Positions 22,724 to 30,183 of a stretch of 64,000 bases of DNA are shown here, piece by piece; the first letter of the stretch is position 1; each line of letters starts with the position of its first letter. Source of the DNA: Escherichia coli (GTDB taxonomy: Bacteria > Pseudomonadota > Gammaproteobacteria > Enterobacterales > Enterobacteriaceae); the NCBI RefSeq assembly GCF_003334815.1, contig NZ_QOWO01000011.1. One strand, given 5' to 3'. The position numbers and the translations under genes were made by a program. The notes beneath the pieces were generated by a model, which was not told the DNA's origin, ran no database searches, and saw nothing but the letters and a program-made list of their open reading frames with translations.

Positions 22724-23629
22724 ATGCGTCGAACGTTTATCAAAAAAGAAGGCGTCGTCATCACGACGCTGGCCCGTTATTTGTTGGGTGAAAAGTGCGG
22801 TAATCGATTGAAAACCATAGATGAGCTGGCAAATGAATGCCGTTCATCCGTTGGCCTGACGCAGGCCGCGTTGAAAACGCTGGAATCAAGCGGAGCGATA
22901 CGGATTGAACGCCGTGGGCGCAATGGCAGTTATCTGGTCGAGATGGATAACAAAGCATTGCTGACTCATGTGGATATCAACAACGTGGTATGTGCAATGC
23001 CCTTGCCCTATACCCGTTTGTACGAAGGCCTGGCGAGCGGATTGAAAGCCCAGTTTGATGGCATTCCTTTTTACTATGCGCACATGCGTGGCGCGGATAT
23101 TCGCGTGGAGTGTCTGCTTAATGGCGTGTATGACATGGCGGTGGTTTCGCGACTAGCGGCGGAAAGTTATCTCACGCAAAAAGGCTTATGCCTCGCGCTG
23201 GAGTTGGGGCCGCACACCTACGTTGGCGAGCACCAGTTGATTTGCCGTAAAGGCGAGTCCGCAAACGTGAAGCGCGTGGGGCTGGATAACCGTTCGGCGG
23301 ATCAGAAAATCATGACCGATGTTTTTTTTGGCGGTAGTGATGTGGAACGAGTCGATCTCTCTTATCACGAGAGTTTACAACGCATTGTTAAAGGCGATGT
23401 CGATGCGGTGATCTGGAACGTGGTGGCGGAAAACGAACTGACCATGCTGGGATTAGAGGCGACGCCGCTCACAGACGATCCGCGATTTTTACAGGCCACC
23501 GAAGCCGTGGTCCTGACGCGAGTCGATGATTACCCAATGCAACAACTGCTGCGTGCCGTTGTAGATAAACACGCCCTGCTCGCCCATCAACAACGGGTAG
23601 TGAGTGGGGAACAGGAACCGAGTTATTAA
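22724..23629 (+). CDS. yhfZ: Putative regulator with an N-terminal winged-helix (GntR-like) domain and a ligand-binding domain, 301 aa.
   Basis: Position and length; N-terminal HTH-like segment; weak Shine-Dalgarno. Confidence 0.7.
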   Translation: MRRTFIKKEGVVITTLARYLLGEKCGNRLKTIDELANECRSSVGLTQAALKTLESSGAIRIERRGRNGSYLVEMDNKALLTHVDINNVVCAMPLPYTRLYEGLASGLKAQFDGIPFYYAHMRGADIRVECLLNGVYDMAVVSRLAAESYLTQKGLCLALELGPHTYVGEHQLICRKGESANVKRVGLDNRSADQKIMTDVFFGGSDVERVDLSYHESLQRIVKGDVDAVIWNVVAENELTMLGLEATPLTDDPRFLQATEAVVLTRVDDYPMQQLLRAVVDKHALLAHQQRVVSGEQEPSY

Positions 23630-23645
23630 ACGAAAGGCATCTGAT

Positions 23646-24008
23646 ATGGAAACCAGACTCAACCTGCTTTGCGAGGCAGGCGTTATTGATAAGGACATCT
23701 GCAAAGGCATGATGCAGGTCGTCAACGTACTGGAAACAGAGTGCCATCTGCCGGTGCGCAGTGAGCAAGGAACGATGGCGATGACACATATGGCGAGTGC
23801 ACTGATGCGCAGTCGCCGTGGTGAAGAAATAGAGCCGCTGGATAACGAGTTGCTGGCAGAACTGGCGCAATCCAGCCACTGGCAAGCCGTTGTGCAATTG
23901 CATCAGGTGTTGTTGAAGGAATTCGCACTGGAAGTTAACCCGTGTGAAGAAGGCTATTTGCTGGCCAACCTTTATGGATTATGGATGGCTGCTAACGAAG
24001 AGGTTTGA
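23646..24008 (+). CDS. yhfY: PRD-like small protein, 120 aa.
   Basis: METRLNLLCEAGVIDKD...; the track ORF is extended 14 codons upstream. Confidence 0.7.
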   Translation: METRLNLLCEAGVIDKDICKGMMQVVNVLETECHLPVRSEQGTMAMTHMASALMRSRRGEEIEPLDNELLAELAQSSHWQAVVQLHQVLLKEFALEVNPCEEGYLLANLYGLWMAANEEV

Positions 24009-24091
24009 AGCTCCCGACAAATCCACGTCGCACAACCTAAATATTCAAAAAAATGAATATTTAATTCAAGGAACAGAAACGAGGCAACAAG

Positions 24092-27720: not shown

Positions 27721-27731
27721 AAGGCACGACT

Positions 27732-29036
27732 ATGGATCTGTATATTCAGATTATCGTGGTGGCGTGCCTGACGGGTATGACATCGCTTCTGGCGCATCGC
27801 TCGGCGGCTGTTTTTCATGACGGCATCCGCCCGATCCTGCCGCAACTGATTGAAGGCTATATGAACCGTCGCGAGGCGGGGAGTATCGCTTTTGGTCTGA
27901 GCATTGGTTTTGTGGCCTCGGTGGGGATCTCTTTTACCCTGAAAACCGGGCTGCTCAACGCATGGTTACTCTTTCTTCCTACCGATATCCTCGGCGTCCT
28001 GGCGATAAACAGCCTGATGGCGTTTGGTCTTGGCGCTATCTGGGGCGTGTTGATCCTTACTTGCCTGTTGCCAGTAAACCAGCTGCTGACCGCGCTGCCG
28101 GTGGATGTATTAGGTAGCCTGGGGGAATTAAGCTCGCCGGTGGTTTCAGCTTTTGCACTGTTCCCGCTGGTGGCGATTTTCTACCAGTTTGGCTGGAAGC
28201 AAAGTCTGATCGCCGCCGTGGTGGTACTGATGACCCGTGTGGTAGTCGTGCGCTATTTCCCACATCTTAACCCTGAATCCATCGAAATCTTTATTGGCAT
28301 GGTGATGCTGCTGGGGATCGCGATAACTCACGACCTGCGTCATCGTGATGAAAATGACATTGATGCCAGCGGGCTTTCGGTGTTTGAAGAACGCACGTCA
28401 CGGATTATCAAAAACTTACCCTATATCGCCATCGTGGGAGCATTGATTGCCGCCGTTGCCAGCATGAAGATTTTTGCTGGCAGTGAAGTGTCGATCTTCA
28501 CACTGGAGAAAGCATATTCCGCAGGCGTAACGCCGGAACAATCGCAAACGCTGATTAATCAGGCGGCTCTGGCAGAATTTATGCGCGGACTGGGGGTTGT
28601 GCCGTTGATTGCCACCACCGCGTTAGCAACGGGTGTGTATGCAGTTGCGGGCTTTACCTTTGTTTATGCGGTGGGCTATCTCTCGCCGAATCCGATGGTT
28701 GCAGCGGTATTAGGCGCAGTGGTTATTTCGGCGGAAGTCTTGCTGCTTCGTTCGATCGGCAAATGGCTGGGACGCTACCCGTCGGTGCGTAATGCGTCGG
28801 ATAACATCCGTAACGCCATGAATATGCTGATGGAAGTGGCGCTGCTGGTCGGTTCGATTTTCGCAGCAATTAAGATGGCGGGTTATACCGGATTCTCTAT
28901 CGCGGTTGCCATTTACTTCCTCAACGAATCCCTGGGCCGTCCGGTACAGAAAATGGCGGCACCGGTCGTGGCAGTAATGATCACCGGTATTCTGCTGAAT
29001 GTTCTTTACTGGCTTGGCCTGTTCGTTCCGGCTTAA
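27732..29036 (+). CDS. yhfT: Polytopic inner-membrane protein, a probable transporter, 434 aa.
   Basis: About 11 predicted hydrophobic segments; position and length. Confidence 0.75.
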   Translation: MDLYIQIIVVACLTGMTSLLAHRSAAVFHDGIRPILPQLIEGYMNRREAGSIAFGLSIGFVASVGISFTLKTGLLNAWLLFLPTDILGVLAINSLMAFGLGAIWGVLILTCLLPVNQLLTALPVDVLGSLGELSSPVVSAFALFPLVAIFYQFGWKQSLIAAVVVLMTRVVVVRYFPHLNPESIEIFIGMVMLLGIAITHDLRHRDENDIDASGLSVFEERTSRIIKNLPYIAIVGALIAAVASMKIFAGSEVSIFTLEKAYSAGVTPEQSQTLINQAALAEFMRGLGVVPLIATTALATGVYAVAGFTFVYAVGYLSPNPMVAAVLGAVVISAEVLLLRSIGKWLGRYPSVRNASDNIRNAMNMLMEVALLVGSIFAAIKMAGYTGFSIAVAIYFLNESLGRPVQKMAAPVVAVMITGILLNVLYWLGLFVPA

Positions 29037-29047
29037 GGAAGGCACCT

Positions 29048-30183
29048 ATGAAGACGTTTCCTCTGCAAAGCCTGACGATTATTGAGGCGCAGCAAAAGCA
29101 GTTTGCGCTGGTGGATAGCATTTGTCGCCATTTCCCCGGCAGCGAGTTTCTTACTGGCGGTGATTTAGGCTTAACGCCAGGACTGAATCAACCGCGCGTT
29201 ACCCAGCGTGTGGAACAGGTGCTGGCTGATGCATTTCACGCACAGGCTGCGGCGCTGGTGCAGGGCGCGGGGACTGGCGCGATTCGCGCCGGGCTGGCGG
29301 CTTTGCTCAAACCGGGGCAGCGTCTTCTGGTGCATGACGCGCCTGTTTACCCGACGACACGGGTTATTATTGAGCAGATGGGGCTGACGCGCCTGTTTAC
29401 CCGACGACACGGGTTATTATTGAGCAGATGGGGCTGACGCTTATTACTGTTGATTTCAATGACCTGTCGGCACTGAAGCAGGTCGTCGACGAGCAACAAC
29501 CGGATGCGGCGCTGGTGCAGCATACGCGCCAGCAGCCGCAGGACAGCTACGTGCTGGCAGATGTGCTGGCAACGTTGCGCGCGGCAGGTGTTCCAGCGTT
29601 AACCGATGACAACTATGCGGTGATGAAGGTGGCTCGAATCGGCTGTGAATGCGGCGCGAATGTCTCGACATTTTCCTGCTTCAAGCTATTTGGGCCAGAG
29701 GGTGTTGGTGCAGTGGTCGGCGATGCTGATGTTATCAACCGTATTCGCGCCACGCTTTACTCCGGCGGTAGCCAGATCCAGGGCGCACAGGCGCTGGAAG
29801 TATTGCGTGGTCTGGTGTTTGCGCCAGTGATGCACGCGGTGCAGGCAGGGGTATCTGAACGGTTGCTGGCTTTGCTTAACGGTGGTGCGGTGCCGGAAGT
29901 GAAAAGCGCGGTGATTGCTAATGCGCAGTCGAAGGTGTTGATTGTCGAGTTTCATCAGCCGATTGCCGCCAGAGTGCTGGAAGAGGCGCAAAAGCGCGGT
30001 GCCTTGCCTTACCCGGTGGGTGCAGAGTCGAAATATGAAATCCCGCCGCTCTTTTATCGCCTTTCCGGAACGTTTCGCCAGGCGAATCCACAATCAGAAC
30101 ATTGTGCGATTCGCATTAACCCGAATCGCAGCGGTGAAGAGACGGTGCTGCGGATTTTGCGTGAGAGTATTGCCAGTATTTAA
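29048..30183 (+). pseudogene. yhfS: SelA-like PLP-dependent enzyme gene yhfS, disrupted by a 50-bp tandem duplication that frameshifts after codon 118 or so. Removing one copy restores a 361-aa ORF.
   Basis: Two abutting track ORFs (29048-29437 and 29428-30183) share context. Bases 29341-29390 and 29391-29440 are identical. Confidence 0.85.
29336..29440. repeat. Perfect 50-bp direct tandem duplication (2.1 copies) bounded by a 5-bp GACGC microhomology.
   Basis: GCCTGTTTACCCGACGACACGGGTTATTATTGAGCAGATGGGGCTGACGC occurs twice in tandem; GACGC is present at the left flank, the junction and the right end. Confidence 0.95.

Follow-up and report, generated by a model that had tools for sequence, protein, structure and literature searches.

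The yhfZ-yhfY-yhfX-yhfW-php-yhfU-yhfT-yhfS cluster of Escherichia coli raises the question of what it does and on which substrate it acts. The stretch described here is this long-known cluster and not a new one. It lies in a window (the whole stretch of DNA that was analysed) of 64,000 nucleotides and, apart from 50 extra bases, matches E. coli strain D9, whose RefSeq annotation has the same eight genes, at 100% identity. A sequence-only reading of the window had described an operon of catabolic appearance that includes a regulator and a transporter, which is supported here, and knew of no assigned substrate; a literature search likewise found no published one. The eight open reading frames are all on the + strand and tightly packed, at the coordinates then read (Table 1). 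The overlaps TAATG (yhfX/yhfW) and ATGA (yhfW/php) were confirmed by sequence. The 10–12-bp gaps given in that reading hold for php-yhfU, yhfU-yhfT and yhfT-yhfS (10, 11 and 11 nt) but not for yhfZ-yhfY (16 nt) or yhfY-yhfX (83 nt). No convincing internal + strand terminator was found inside the unit.

Table 1. Coordinates, in the window, of the yhf genes and of the signals and repeats around them.
Feature	Position	Strand	Description
REP/BIME element, 5' of trpS terminator	~22462-22560		REP inverted repeats; sub-threshold naRNA4 (REP-derived) matches
trpS intrinsic terminator, upstream boundary of yhf unit	22581..22602	+	9-bp stem GAAACCGGG/CCCGGTTTT and T-run
Operator-like palindrome O1	22674..22695	.	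TATCTTCA-N6-TGAAGATA; 8+8 nt, 100% complementary
Operator-like palindrome O2	22695..22722	.	ATAAATATTCA-N6-TGAAAATTTAT
yhfZ	22724..23629	+	winged-HTH (HTH_41) and YhfZ_C, GntR family regulator; PF14502, PF14503
yhfY	23646..24008	+	stand-alone PRD-domain protein with H48-x6-R55
Operator-like perfect palindrome O3, in yhfY-yhfX spacer	24038..24063	.	TAAATATTCA-N6-TGAATATTTA
yhfX	24092..25255	+	fold-type III (alanine-racemase-fold) PLP enzyme with K61; PF01168, PF21279
yhfW	25255..26481	+	metallo-phosphomutase, paralogue of phosphopentomutase; PF01676
php	26478..27356	+	binuclear-metal amidohydrolase, phosphotriesterase (PTE) family; PF02126 E 3.6e-147
yhfU	27367..27720	+	DUF2620, small RpiB-fold protein
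yhfT	27732..29036	+	polytopic membrane protein, orphan family PF10797
yhfS	29048..30183	+	PLP enzyme of fold type I, K196; divided here between ORFs of 129 and 251 aa
Perfect 50-bp tandem duplication in yhfS	29339..29438	+	29339-29388 = 29389-29438
Downstream boundary repeats	30209..30329	not assigned	BoxC-like inverted repeat and REP

Profile and structure searches reproduced the earlier domain assignments for seven of the proteins, only that of YhfS failing. The alanine-racemase fold of YhfX is borne out by its Pfam match and by the invariant K61; its structure (PDB 4KBX) is titled ‘uncharacterized’, and among solved relatives D-threonine aldolase and alanine racemase come closest (E ~1e-3). 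YhfW, read as phosphopentomutase-like, matches Bacillus cereus PPM (E 3e-31) and NF009049 (741.9 bits), the DeoB models scoring under their cutoffs. Php, as a binuclear-metal amidohydrolase, has all six metal ligands (H12, H14, E125, H158, H186 and D243). Its nearest characterised NCBIfam models are the phospho-furanose lactonase (NF045706, 104 bits) and OPH (101 bits), both far under their cutoffs; with a cutoff of 630 bits, Php is therefore not an NF045706 equivalog. Phospho-sugar lactonases of the PTE family, which reportedly include Lmo2620 and Bh0225 (Xiang et al. 2012), share with Php the PTE fold and all six ligands; such lactonases are likewise encoded beside genes of the phosphoenolpyruvate:sugar phosphotransferase system (PTS). 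YhfS, which has a structural match in PDB 4J8L, had been called a SelA-like PLP lyase. This was rejected: Pfam SelA gives no match to E. coli YhfS even at E<=10, and the family profile ranks methionine gamma-lyase and cystathionine gamma-synthase at the top (E 4e-11), neither SelA nor D-glucosaminate-6-P ammonia-lyase appearing among the best 60 chains.

The same reading held yhfS to be frameshifted and the operon to be decaying. The frameshift is real, and is caused by the perfect tandem duplication (2.1 copies, 100% identity by TRF), which arose between two copies of the direct repeat TGACGC, 50 bp from each other, and shifts the frame by +2 within codon 114. Decay is not borne out. The other seven genes are intact and identical to the copies of other strains, and dN/dS is 0.03–0.16 for all eight genes, within Escherichia too, so that all are under strong purifying selection. 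Gene order after trpS is constant in at least 10 enterobacterial genera. The operon is thus not decaying, its sole lesion being one reversible yhfS duplication. It is very improbable that E. coli merely carries a silent remnant which no longer has a function: this would account for the broken yhfS, the want of a known phenotype or inducer, the failure of a consensus scan to find a sigma-70-like promoter 5' of yhfZ, and the 342 of 5426 complete E. coli genomes that have no cluster (5084 have it), but it is at odds with the dN/dS values, with the conserved palindromes described below and with the absence of the lesion among the matches listed from those 5426 genomes, each of which breaks in two over a 91-base span. 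YhfY, YhfX, YhfU and YhfT form the core of the cluster, to which YhfZ and YhfW usually belong as well. Php and YhfS are accessories, and yhfS is missing from the clusters of other lineages, so the duplication probably curtails the pathway without destroying it.

The position beside the fructoselysine (frl) operon had been taken as support for a related function. In three Escherichia lineages besides E. coli/E. ruysiae, and in Citrobacter, Klebsiella, Pluralibacter, Buttiauxella, Cedecea and Trabulsiella, synteny resumes directly after yhfS with what lies at ~35420-35917 of the window, beyond frlA. Judged from this synteny, frlRDCBA is a lineage-specific insertion of ~5.2 kb (~30200-35420), confined to E. 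coli, E. ruysiae and Shigella, and the adjacency is therefore uninformative on function. The two operons are alike in being physical neighbours in E. coli and amino-sugar-type catabolic operons with GntR-family regulators; they differ in having no shared homologues and no conserved linkage. The earlier proposal of a joint role with frl in the use of glycated amino acids (Amadori or Heyns products) is accordingly quite improbable. It can draw on the adjacency, on the PTS-dependent Heyns and Amadori pathways that exist in enterobacteria, and on a two-SIS-domain protein of one distant locus (L075), the family of which includes FrlB, although the FrlB match is just E 3e-6 as against 2.8e-47 for NagB-II; no frl homologue stands beside the cluster in the loci examined outside the E. 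coli/E. ruysiae/Shigella lineage.

Gene neighbourhoods instead probably tie the cluster to the PTS, a link overlooked in the sequence-only reading, which had nonetheless suggested a genome-context comparison for PTS genes. That comparison places HPr and/or Enzyme I (EI) genes within the cluster in four distant loci. In L067 and L070 the DUF2620 gene is preceded, at 5–6 nt, by a gene for HPr that has the HARP active-site motif, and in L067 an EI gene follows, on the same strand as yhfZ and ~5.9 kb downstream of it. L078 has the order YhfZ-U-T-Php-X-W-HPr-EI, its HPr matching at E 1.8e-28 and its EI having all three domains, and the cluster of L075 ends in X-W-SIS-EI. The preferred reading, for which belief and doubt are about evenly weighted, is that the yhf cluster is a functional, substrate-inducible, PTS-dependent module of uptake and catabolism. 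YhfT would be the membrane permease and YhfU its obligate upstream partner, an EIIB-like protein that may pass phosphate from HPr to the incoming substrate; this is the least certain step. In the cytoplasm Php would open a lactone or ester of the phosphorylated product, YhfW would shift the phosphate, and YhfX would use PLP to epimerise the carbon that bears the amino group, or to bring about retro-aldol cleavage or elimination there, followed in some lineages by a PLP-dependent elimination by YhfS. The end products would be central metabolites, for example glucosamine-6-P/fructose-6-P or KDPG.

YhfU and YhfT are the most conserved proteins of the cluster, and their description as a small protein and a polytopic membrane protein stands. 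Cys52 of YhfU, in a G-x-C-x-T/S-G-x-G loop, is near-invariant throughout the DUF2620 family. The sequence-only reading had not remarked on the RpiB-like fold of YhfU. A possible, if doubtful, alternative is that the operon is catabolic without a PTS permease: YhfT would be a secondary carrier, YhfU a cytoplasmic RpiB-like aldose-ketose isomerase of a sugar-phosphate intermediate, and HPr and EI would only feed the PRD protein or else, on the pattern of the dihydroxyacetone kinase system, supply phosphate to an intermediate in the cytoplasm. The Cys-x-Thr-Gly of YhfU indeed aligns with the catalytic Cys-Gly-Thr-Gly of RpiB, and LacAB_rpiB is matched by 6 of 40 family members, PTS_IIB by none of the 40. 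The PTS model is further weakened by the want of any EIIA candidate, of a significant match of YhfT to EIIC folds or families, and of YhfT beside the DUF2620 gene in L069, where PTE, Eda and a dehydrogenase accompany it; an ABC sugar transporter also adjoins the cluster in L067 and L070 and could be the real uptake route there. YhfU is, however, ~30 residues shorter than RpiB/LacAB at the C-terminus, the residue equivalent to RpiB His99 is unconserved, and the RpiB/LacAB Pfam score is 13.6 against a threshold of 24.7. A YhfU profile search of 1.84 billion representatives returned only 147 clusters, far fewer than the widespread RpiB would give. Moreover, yhfU is directly 5' of yhfT in every locus with yhfT (gap 1–100 nt overall, ~10 nt in enterobacterial loci), HPr immediately precedes yhfU-yhfT in two loci, and dedicated EI and HPr genes inside the operon exceed the usual need of a regulatory input.

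The chemistry of the substrate is suggested by accessory genes. In some Vibrio loci a bona fide NagB gene (TIGR00502, 409 bits against a cutoff of 237) begins 3 nt after yhfW; its patchy occurrence, with none in Photobacterium or V. aestuarianus, counts against the model, as does the negative outcome of the promoter scan. The L075 protein is NagB-II/GlmS-like and non-homologous to NagB, L069 contributes the Eda aldolase, and RidA heads the L067 operon. Where yhfS is absent, PhoC-like and e(P4)-type periplasmic phosphatases and a KdgM porin follow directly after yhfT; the phosphatases occur in Pluralibacter, Serratia and Shimwellia, the e(P4)-family 5'-nucleotidase exceeding the TIGR01533 cutoff. 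Together NagB, the NagB-II-like SIS protein, Eda, RidA and the periplasmic phosphatases suggest that the substrate is a phosphorylated amino sugar or amino-aldonate, and count in favour of the preferred model, as does the resemblance of Php to the phospho-furanose lactonase. A 2-amino sugar or 2-amino-aldonate that is acidic or can be phosphorylated, or the lactone of one, is the most likely class. These genes of other lineages are in agreement with the earlier suggestion that the substrate derives from an amino sugar or amino acid and might be phosphorylated or a lactone. The nucleotidase could also belong to the salvage of a ribosyl or nucleoside-type compound with an amino-acid moiety, in which the periplasmic enzymes would strip phosphate, YhfT take up the nucleoside-like compound, PPM-like YhfW and RpiB-like YhfU channel the pentose phosphate, and YhfX and YhfS break down the amino-acid portion. 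Ribose phosphates are indeed the substrates of the closest characterised relatives of both YhfW and YhfU, and YhfS is closest to C-S/C-O gamma-lyases. This is nevertheless unlikely: the cluster has no nucleoside phosphorylase or hydrolase, YhfW falls under the DeoB equivalog thresholds, a PTS link is unusual for nucleosides, and NagB, NagB-II-like and Eda genes indicate hexosamine or aldonate chemistry.

The PTS-dependent model has a parallel in the Salmonella dgaABCDEF system, which, according to PMC9529869 (citing Miller et al. 2013), yields D-glucosaminate-6-P by PTS uptake, converts it to KDPG with a PLP ammonia-lyase and cleaves KDPG with an aldolase. The proposed yhf pathway would share with it the logic of a PTS-coupled phosphorylated 2-amino-aldonate, a fold-type I PLP enzyme and an aldolase, the last echoed by the Eda and PTE genes that accompany DUF2620 in L069. 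Dga, however, has a canonical mannose-family EIIABCD and a sigma-54 activator, whereas the yhf set includes a PLP enzyme of fold type III along with a phosphomutase and a PTE-type hydrolase, and the YhfS profile favours the methionine gamma-lyase type over the Dga lyase.

A second similar system is the conserved EF_0829-EF_0839/AHA_3910-3917 cluster (TIGR03576-03583), which by the TIGRFAM descriptions encodes a PRD protein, a Gly-rich SFCGS protein, DUF4310/4311/4312 membrane proteins, an amidohydrolase, a SelA-like PLP enzyme and an aldolase. It shares with yhf a PRD protein (YhfY matches TIGR03582 weakly), a small Cys/Gly-loop protein (nine of 40 DUF2620 proteins match PF14272 Gly_rich_SFCGS, best E 8.4e-6), orphan membrane protein(s), an amidohydrolase-superfamily enzyme and a fold-I PLP enzyme. 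The membrane proteins, the hydrolase family and the PLP family all differ, YhfT giving no match to the DUF4310 or DUF4311 models. A literature search found no characterisation of that system.

The assignments of YhfZ as a winged-HTH regulator and of YhfY as PRD-like are both upheld. YhfZ matches the NF041241 equivalog (373.6 bits, cutoff 260), and its C-terminal domain is PDB 2OZZ. E. coli YhfY scores 20.2 bits with Pfam PRD, under the gathering score of 23, but its homologue in L075 exceeds this threshold (28.7), and 13 homologues of 16–53% identity all keep H48, R55 and E101. YhfY thus keeps the His-x6-Arg phosphorylation motif of the PRD PTS regulators (the BglG/LicT antiterminators and the MtlR/LicR/LevR activators), and the YhfZ HTH and YhfY PRD together resemble a split PRD activator. 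Unlike those regulators, YhfY is a free-standing PRD of 120 residues with a single conserved His, the second being Asn in enterobacteria; it is paired with a DNA-binding GntR-type wHTH protein whose effector domain resembles periplasmic binding proteins, and no EIIA/EIIB regulatory domain or RNA-binding CAT domain is present. YhfY may couple YhfZ to the phosphorylation state of the PTS through His48; HPr and EI could serve merely to phosphorylate it, which counts against a PTS permease.

Three TTCA-N6-TGAA palindromes, which the sequence-only reading had passed over, are probably YhfZ operators, to judge from their conservation; YhfZ would bind a pair of them over its own promoter and the third ahead of yhfX. 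The TTCA cores of O1 and O2 begin 46 and 22 nt 5' of the yhfZ ATG, and the exact motif occurs at -46 and -22 in 41 of 65 loci. O3 has a fixed position at ~-48 from the yhfX start, with an exact core 5' of yhfX in 37 of 70 loci, is conserved across genera, and therefore probably marks a second regulated promoter. The palindromes are kept from Escherichia to Vibrio, Aeromonas and metagenomic relatives, with diverging flanks. In the window ATTCA-N6-TGAA has four matches against 0.58 expected, representing three distinct positions since the palindromic one is counted on both strands, and two of the three fall inside the yhf cluster.

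The yhf cluster consists of eight co-directional ORFs, all of which lie in the window where the sequence-only reading had placed them. The genes are tightly packed, with yhfX and yhfW overlapping in TAATG and yhfW and php in ATGA, again as claimed. The short gaps that had been described do precede yhfU, yhfT and yhfS (10, 11 and 11 nt), but the spacers between yhfZ and yhfY (16 nt) and between yhfY and yhfX (83 nt) are wider. For at least seven of the eight genes a purine-rich stretch resembling a ribosome-binding site lies upstream, and the leader of yhfZ is AT-rich. The upstream gene, trpS, is closed by a strong terminator (22581-22602), to which nothing on the plus strand inside the cluster is comparable. 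Both sides of the cluster are bounded by REP and BoxC-type repeats; an Rfam search of the region gave no riboswitch or leader RNA, the sole matches being sub-threshold ones to the REP-derived naRNA4 (22462-22498 and 30270-30329). The stretch is 100% identical to that of E. coli strains D9 and D4, save for 50 extra bases in the window, and the RefSeq annotation of D9 holds the same eight genes. The object is the yhf cluster already annotated in E. coli; the observation is correct, and is not new as a finding.

Features of the yhf cluster and its surroundings (window coordinates)
Feature	Coordinates	Strand or location	Remark
REP/BIME elements	22462-22560	upstream flank of cluster	
Palindrome TATCTTCA-N6-TGAAGATA	22674-22695	5' of yhfZ	core TTCA-N6-TGAA
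Palindrome ATAAATATTCA-N6-TGAAAATTTAT	22695-22722	5' of yhfZ	core TTCA-N6-TGAA
yhfZ	22724-23629	+	ORF
yhfY	23646-24008	+	ORF
Perfect palindrome TAAATATTCA-N6-TGAATATTTA	24038-24063	yhfY-yhfX spacer	core TTCA-N6-TGAA
yhfX	24092-25255	+	ORF
yhfW	25255-26481	+	ORF
php	26478-27356	+	ORF
yhfU	27367-27720	+	ORF
yhfT	27732-29036	+	ORF
yhfS	29048-30183	+	ORF
BoxC-like inverted repeat + REP	30209-30329	downstream flank of cluster	
frlRDCBA block	about 30200-35420	between yhfS and next conserved gene (ORF 35917-37290, minus strand)	

The cluster is widespread and under selection. It was found in 5084 of 5426 complete E. coli genomes, and the eight-gene order 3' of trpS is common to Escherichia, Citrobacter, Klebsiella, Enterobacter, Buttiauxella, Cedecea, Trabulsiella, Dryocola, Lelliottia, Superficieibacter and Hafnia. 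Values of dN/dS (Nei-Gojobori; orthologues from E. albertii, Citrobacter, Klebsiella and Cedecea) are 0.03-0.16 in all eight genes, with the strongest constraint on YhfU and YhfT. The synteny counts exclude four records filed as 'complete' (loci L055 and L058-L060: E. coli ECGI0523 and ECMA0423, Shigella flexneri SFBU1023 and SFBU0723). Their trpS-yhf-frl proteins show patchy identity of 30-70% beside segments of 90-100%, which looks like uncorrected sequencing error or assembly noise rather than true divergence.

The one lesion is in yhfS, which is present in the window as two ORFs of 129 and 251 aa. As had been claimed, the reading frame is broken, and the cause is a perfect 50-bp tandem duplication (29339-29388 = 29389-29438). 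Without the duplication yhfS contains two TGACGC hexamers 50 bp apart, a pair typical of duplication by slippage or microhomology. In a comparison of the junction with the 5426 complete E. coli genomes every match listed fell into two pieces, with 91 rather than 141 bases, and none of these matches contained the duplication. It is therefore either private to this strain, having arisen once, recently and in a way that could in principle be reversed, or possibly an artefact of assembly or consensus calling. As yhfS is the last gene of the operon, polar effects on the others are not expected. The earlier suggestion of a decaying operon is not sustained, given the constraint on every gene, the prevalence of the cluster and a lesion confined to yhfS of this sequence.

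The position of the fructoselysine operon, frlRDCBA, beside yhfS had been seen as fitting the suggested function. Only E. coli, E. ruysiae and Shigella have the frl genes next to yhfS; in a further three lineages of Escherichia, and in six genera besides, the alignment picks up again right after yhfS, at about 35420-35917 of the window. On this alignment the frl block is a lineage-specific insertion, and its adjacency to yhf is therefore uninformative on function. The proposed link has to be given up: neither conserved linkage nor shared frlABCDR components were found, and the neighbourhood is unfit for annotation by guilt by association.

The domain assignments were largely upheld. YhfZ consists of an HTH_41 and a YhfZ_C domain (the latter solved as PDB 2OZZ) and belongs to the NCBIfam equivalog 'GntR family regulator YhfZ'. 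YhfX combines Ala_racemase_N, a domain of fold-type III PLP enzymes (79 bits against a threshold of 24.1), with YhfX-like_C; its K61 is invariant and its structure (PDB 4KBX) was deposited as 'uncharacterized'. The nearest matches of the family profile, D-threonine aldolase and alanine racemase, reach no better than E about 1e-3, so that YhfX may be a racemase, an aldolase or a dehydratase. Php is a full-length PTE-family protein (PF02126, 490 bits) with all six of the expected binuclear metal ligands (H12, H14, E125, H158, H186 and D243). The nearest characterised NCBIfam models, phospho-furanose lactonase and OPH, are both far under cutoff, the former (NF045706) scoring 104.3 bits against 630, so that Php does not pass as this equivalog.

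The description of YhfW as phosphopentomutase-like holds for the metalloenzyme superfamily, within which it is related to the Bacillus phosphopentomutase (E 3e-31), but not for the DeoB equivalogs (TIGR01696, 145.8 against 341.2 bits; NF003766, 183.9 against 256). Because both thresholds are missed YhfW is regarded as a paralogue and 'phosphopentomutase' as a mere name; the sole model passed, NF009049, is one made for the YhfW-type paralogue. By inspection the N-terminal Asp, the Thr of GDT(F)xGH and DHGNDP/His are kept, which are the metal-ligand and Thr-nucleophile motifs.

The only domain call to fail was that of a SelA-like YhfS. YhfS (PDB 4J8L, deposited as 'uncharacterized') is a fold-type I PLP enzyme in which the Schiff-base lysine K196 (S-x-F-K) is invariant, and it passes the Cys/Met-metabolism PLP family PF01053 marginally (28.8 bits against 27). 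The E. coli protein has no match to SelA (PF03841) even at E<=10. Searched against the PDB, the family profile picks out methionine gamma-lyase (E 4e-11) along with cystathionine gamma-synthase and cysteine desulfurases, and SelA is absent among the best 60 chains. Kinship with SelA/DgaE was considered and rejected, as SelA matches occur only in two distant homologues and are sub-threshold there (17-19 bits against 22.8). Neither 'phosphopentomutase' nor 'SelA-like' is supported as a functional call for annotation.

Three palindromes sharing the core TTCA-N6-TGAA were found in the non-coding parts of the cluster. The motif ATTCA-N6-TGAA has four matches in the 64-kb window against 0.58 expected; these represent three distinct positions, a palindromic one being counted on both strands, and two of the three fall in the yhf cluster. 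The exact core is kept at -46 and -22 from the yhfZ start in 41 of 65 fetched loci (at least one core in 53) and 5' of yhfX in 37 of 70, and many loci without it, such as those of Buttiauxella and Cedecea, have TTCA-N6-TGAT, a single mismatch. The motif also occurs in Vibrio, Aeromonas, Photobacterium and metagenomic relatives, where the flanks have wholly diverged. This conservation makes the palindromes candidate operators for YhfZ, and yhfX would probably be served by its own regulated promoter, with which the RegulonDB-derived unit php-yhfSTUWX (in PMC4448311) agrees. A consensus promoter scan gave no sigma-70 site 5' of yhfZ or yhfX. CRP and sigma-54 motifs in a conserved TGTGA...TTGC stretch 5' of yhfZ were rejected on account of unfit spacing. 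The sigma-54 site predicted upstream of yhfZ in K-12 (PMC2831329) is absent from the window, the matching stretch being REP sequence. The 'attenuator' published upstream of yhfZ is a BIME (PMC2965389); in the window it follows the trpS stop codon and precedes the trpS terminator, and is therefore not part of the yhf leader.

YhfY is a probable stand-alone PRD-domain protein. That of E. coli falls just under the gathering score of the PRD model (PF00874; 20.2 bits against 23), which is exceeded by the homologue from the distant locus L075 (28.7 bits). Across 13 homologues of 16-53% identity only H48, R55 and E101 are kept, so that H48-x6-R55 is invariant; H-x6-R is the phosphorylation motif of the PRD in the BglG/LicT family. 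Several distant relatives also place genes for the general proteins of the phosphotransferase system (PTS), HPr and/or Enzyme I (EI), within or contiguous with the cluster. The high-GC locus L067 has the order PRD-YhfX-YhfW-HPr-DUF2620-YhfT-YhfS-YhfZ, DUF2620 being the family of YhfU, and an EI gene about 5.9 kb 3' of yhfZ on the same strand. L070, also of high GC, has the same order from yhfW on, its contig ending within yhfW so that the PRD and yhfX genes are off the contig. In both, the active site of HPr reads H-A-R-P and only 5-6 nt separate the end of its gene from that of the DUF2620 protein. The L078 operon reads YhfZ-U-T-Php-X-W-HPr-EI (HPr E 1.8e-28; all three EI domains) and that of L075 Z-PRD-U-T-S-X-W-SIS-EI. 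These four occurrences, which include the closely similar L067 and L070, together with the PRD protein make the PTS connection the best-supported new inference. Near the cluster in the E. coli window there are no EI or HPr genes; ptsHI is located elsewhere in the genome.

The DUF2620 family carries the motif D-Y-Y-x-G-x-C-x-T/S-G-x-G-G-A with a nearly invariant Cys52, and in YhfU, which has an RpiB-like fold, this motif aligns with the catalytic C-G-T-G of RpiB. Among 40 DUF2620 proteins weak Pfam matches were obtained to Gly_rich_SFCGS (nine, best E 8.4e-6) and LacAB_rpiB (six), and none to the PTS_IIB models. The Gly_rich_SFCGS matches tie yhf to the equally uncharacterised EF_0829/AHA_3910-type cluster, in which a PRD protein is likewise encoded. 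YhfT matches only its own Pfam family, with no significant match to any known EIIC family, and yhfU lies directly 5' of yhfT in every yhfT-bearing locus. We tentatively propose, with rather less than even confidence, that YhfU and YhfT are the first known members of a new PTS Enzyme II family: YhfU would be an RpiB-fold phospho-Cys carrier charged directly by HPr and YhfT a permease with a fold unlike solved structures, forming a sister to the Gly-rich-SFCGS/DUF4310-4311 system and importing and phosphorylating an amino-sugar acid not among the compounds that E. coli is at present known to use. If true, this would add both an Enzyme II family and a new nutrient for gut Enterobacteria and Vibrios. 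Alternatively, YhfU may be an RpiB-like enzyme, with HPr and EI feeding the PRD protein only. The position of its Cys at that of RpiB counts against a carrier, as do the lack of an EIIA-like gene in any locus examined and the distant locus L069, where DUF2620 is present without YhfT; on the side of the carrier stand the pairing of yhfU with yhfT and the HPr genes next to DUF2620.

The core of the system is YhfY, YhfX, YhfU and YhfT, with YhfZ and YhfW as usual additions. YhfW and YhfS are missing in Yersinia, YhfS in Serratia, Pluralibacter, Shimwellia, Vibrio, Aeromonas and Photobacterium, and Php in many distant loci. In Enterobacterales without YhfS one or both of two enzymes are encoded within 28-56 nt after yhfT, an acid phosphatase (PAP2, PhoC-like) and a 5'-nucleotidase of the e(P4) family, accompanied in Pluralibacter by a KdgM-family porin. 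Some Vibrio loci have a true nagB 3 nt after yhfW, L075 encodes a two-SIS protein (NagB-II/GlmS-like), in L069 DUF2620 is found alongside PTE, Eda and a 2-hydroxyacid dehydrogenase, and the L067 operon is headed by RidA and an SDR. Two non-homologous types of glucosamine-6-P deaminase, along with a KDPG aldolase, an enamine deaminase and phosphatases of the periplasm, in a handful of loci, together suggest that the substrate is a phosphorylated 2-amino sugar or a 2-amino-aldonate. The earlier interpretation of a catabolic operon for an amino-sugar-like substrate, none being assigned, can be retained, but not its frl, decay and SelA elements.

A route can be proposed in which YhfZ would bind the palindromes, YhfY would relay PTS status, and the substrate would be imported and phosphorylated by YhfU~P and YhfT. 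Php might then open a lactone or ester, YhfW move the phosphate, YhfX act at the amino carbon and YhfS remove a leaving group, its gamma-lyase kinship suiting phosphate or another gamma- or beta-substituent; the end products would be GlcN-6-P/Fru-6-P or KDPG. Directly observed are the operon anatomy, the selection, the palindromes and their conservation, the motif of the PRD, the RpiB-like fold with its Cys and the co-location of HPr and EI; the steps of the scheme are inferred. The nearest pathway already worked out is that for D-glucosaminate in Salmonella, in which the PTS yields D-glucosaminate-6-P, which a PLP ammonia-lyase converts to KDPG for an aldolase (PMC9529869).

The yhf cluster is among the larger function-less gene blocks remaining in E. 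coli K-12, and crystal structures of Php, the YhfZ C-terminal domain, YhfX and YhfS are years old with no reaction assigned. The value added here is a testable model comprising a PTS link, a candidate operator, an RpiB-fold DUF2620 protein with an orphan permease and a narrower substrate class. The apparent PTS wiring, the candidate operator and the accessory genes suggestive of phosphorylated amino-sugar or amino-aldonate chemistry narrow the hunt for a substrate to a few experiments. Searches of the full-text literature gave no substrate, regulator or expression study for these E. coli genes, and the names yhfS, yhfT, yhfU and yhfW mostly refer there to unrelated Bacillus or Staphylococcus genes or to acronyms. 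The mentions found were limited to operon tables (PMC4448311), the BIME 5' of yhfZ (PMC2965389), the sigma-54 prediction (PMC2831329), yhfZ as a hit in a knockout screen, and a PRD/DUF2620/membrane/YhfX set present in some Lactobacillus rhamnosus strains.

Several loci carry further genes. In L067 (13775-17337) and L070 (5283-8312) a CUT2-type sugar ABC transporter (Peripla_BP_1, ABC_tran, BPD_transp_2) lies 3' of yhfZ on the same strand, and GH-like, FGGY kinase and DeoC genes are also found in the vicinity in L067, which suggests a wider carbohydrate-utilisation island. In two Aeromonas loci (L064 8784-9776; L065 6957-7949) the operon continues after yhfW with the gene of a conserved protein of 330 aa, which matches no Pfam or NCBIfam model. 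A reduced php-yhfU-yhfT variant with a PhoC-like phosphatase, without yhfZ, yhfY, yhfX and yhfW, is present in L043 and L046 (8738-12222), preceded by the gene of an IclR regulator and by an ORF of 298 aa that lacks annotation. L046 carries the label Pseudomonas lundensis; its arrangement and identities are those of Serratia proteamaculans L043, and the contig may be mislabelled or contaminated.
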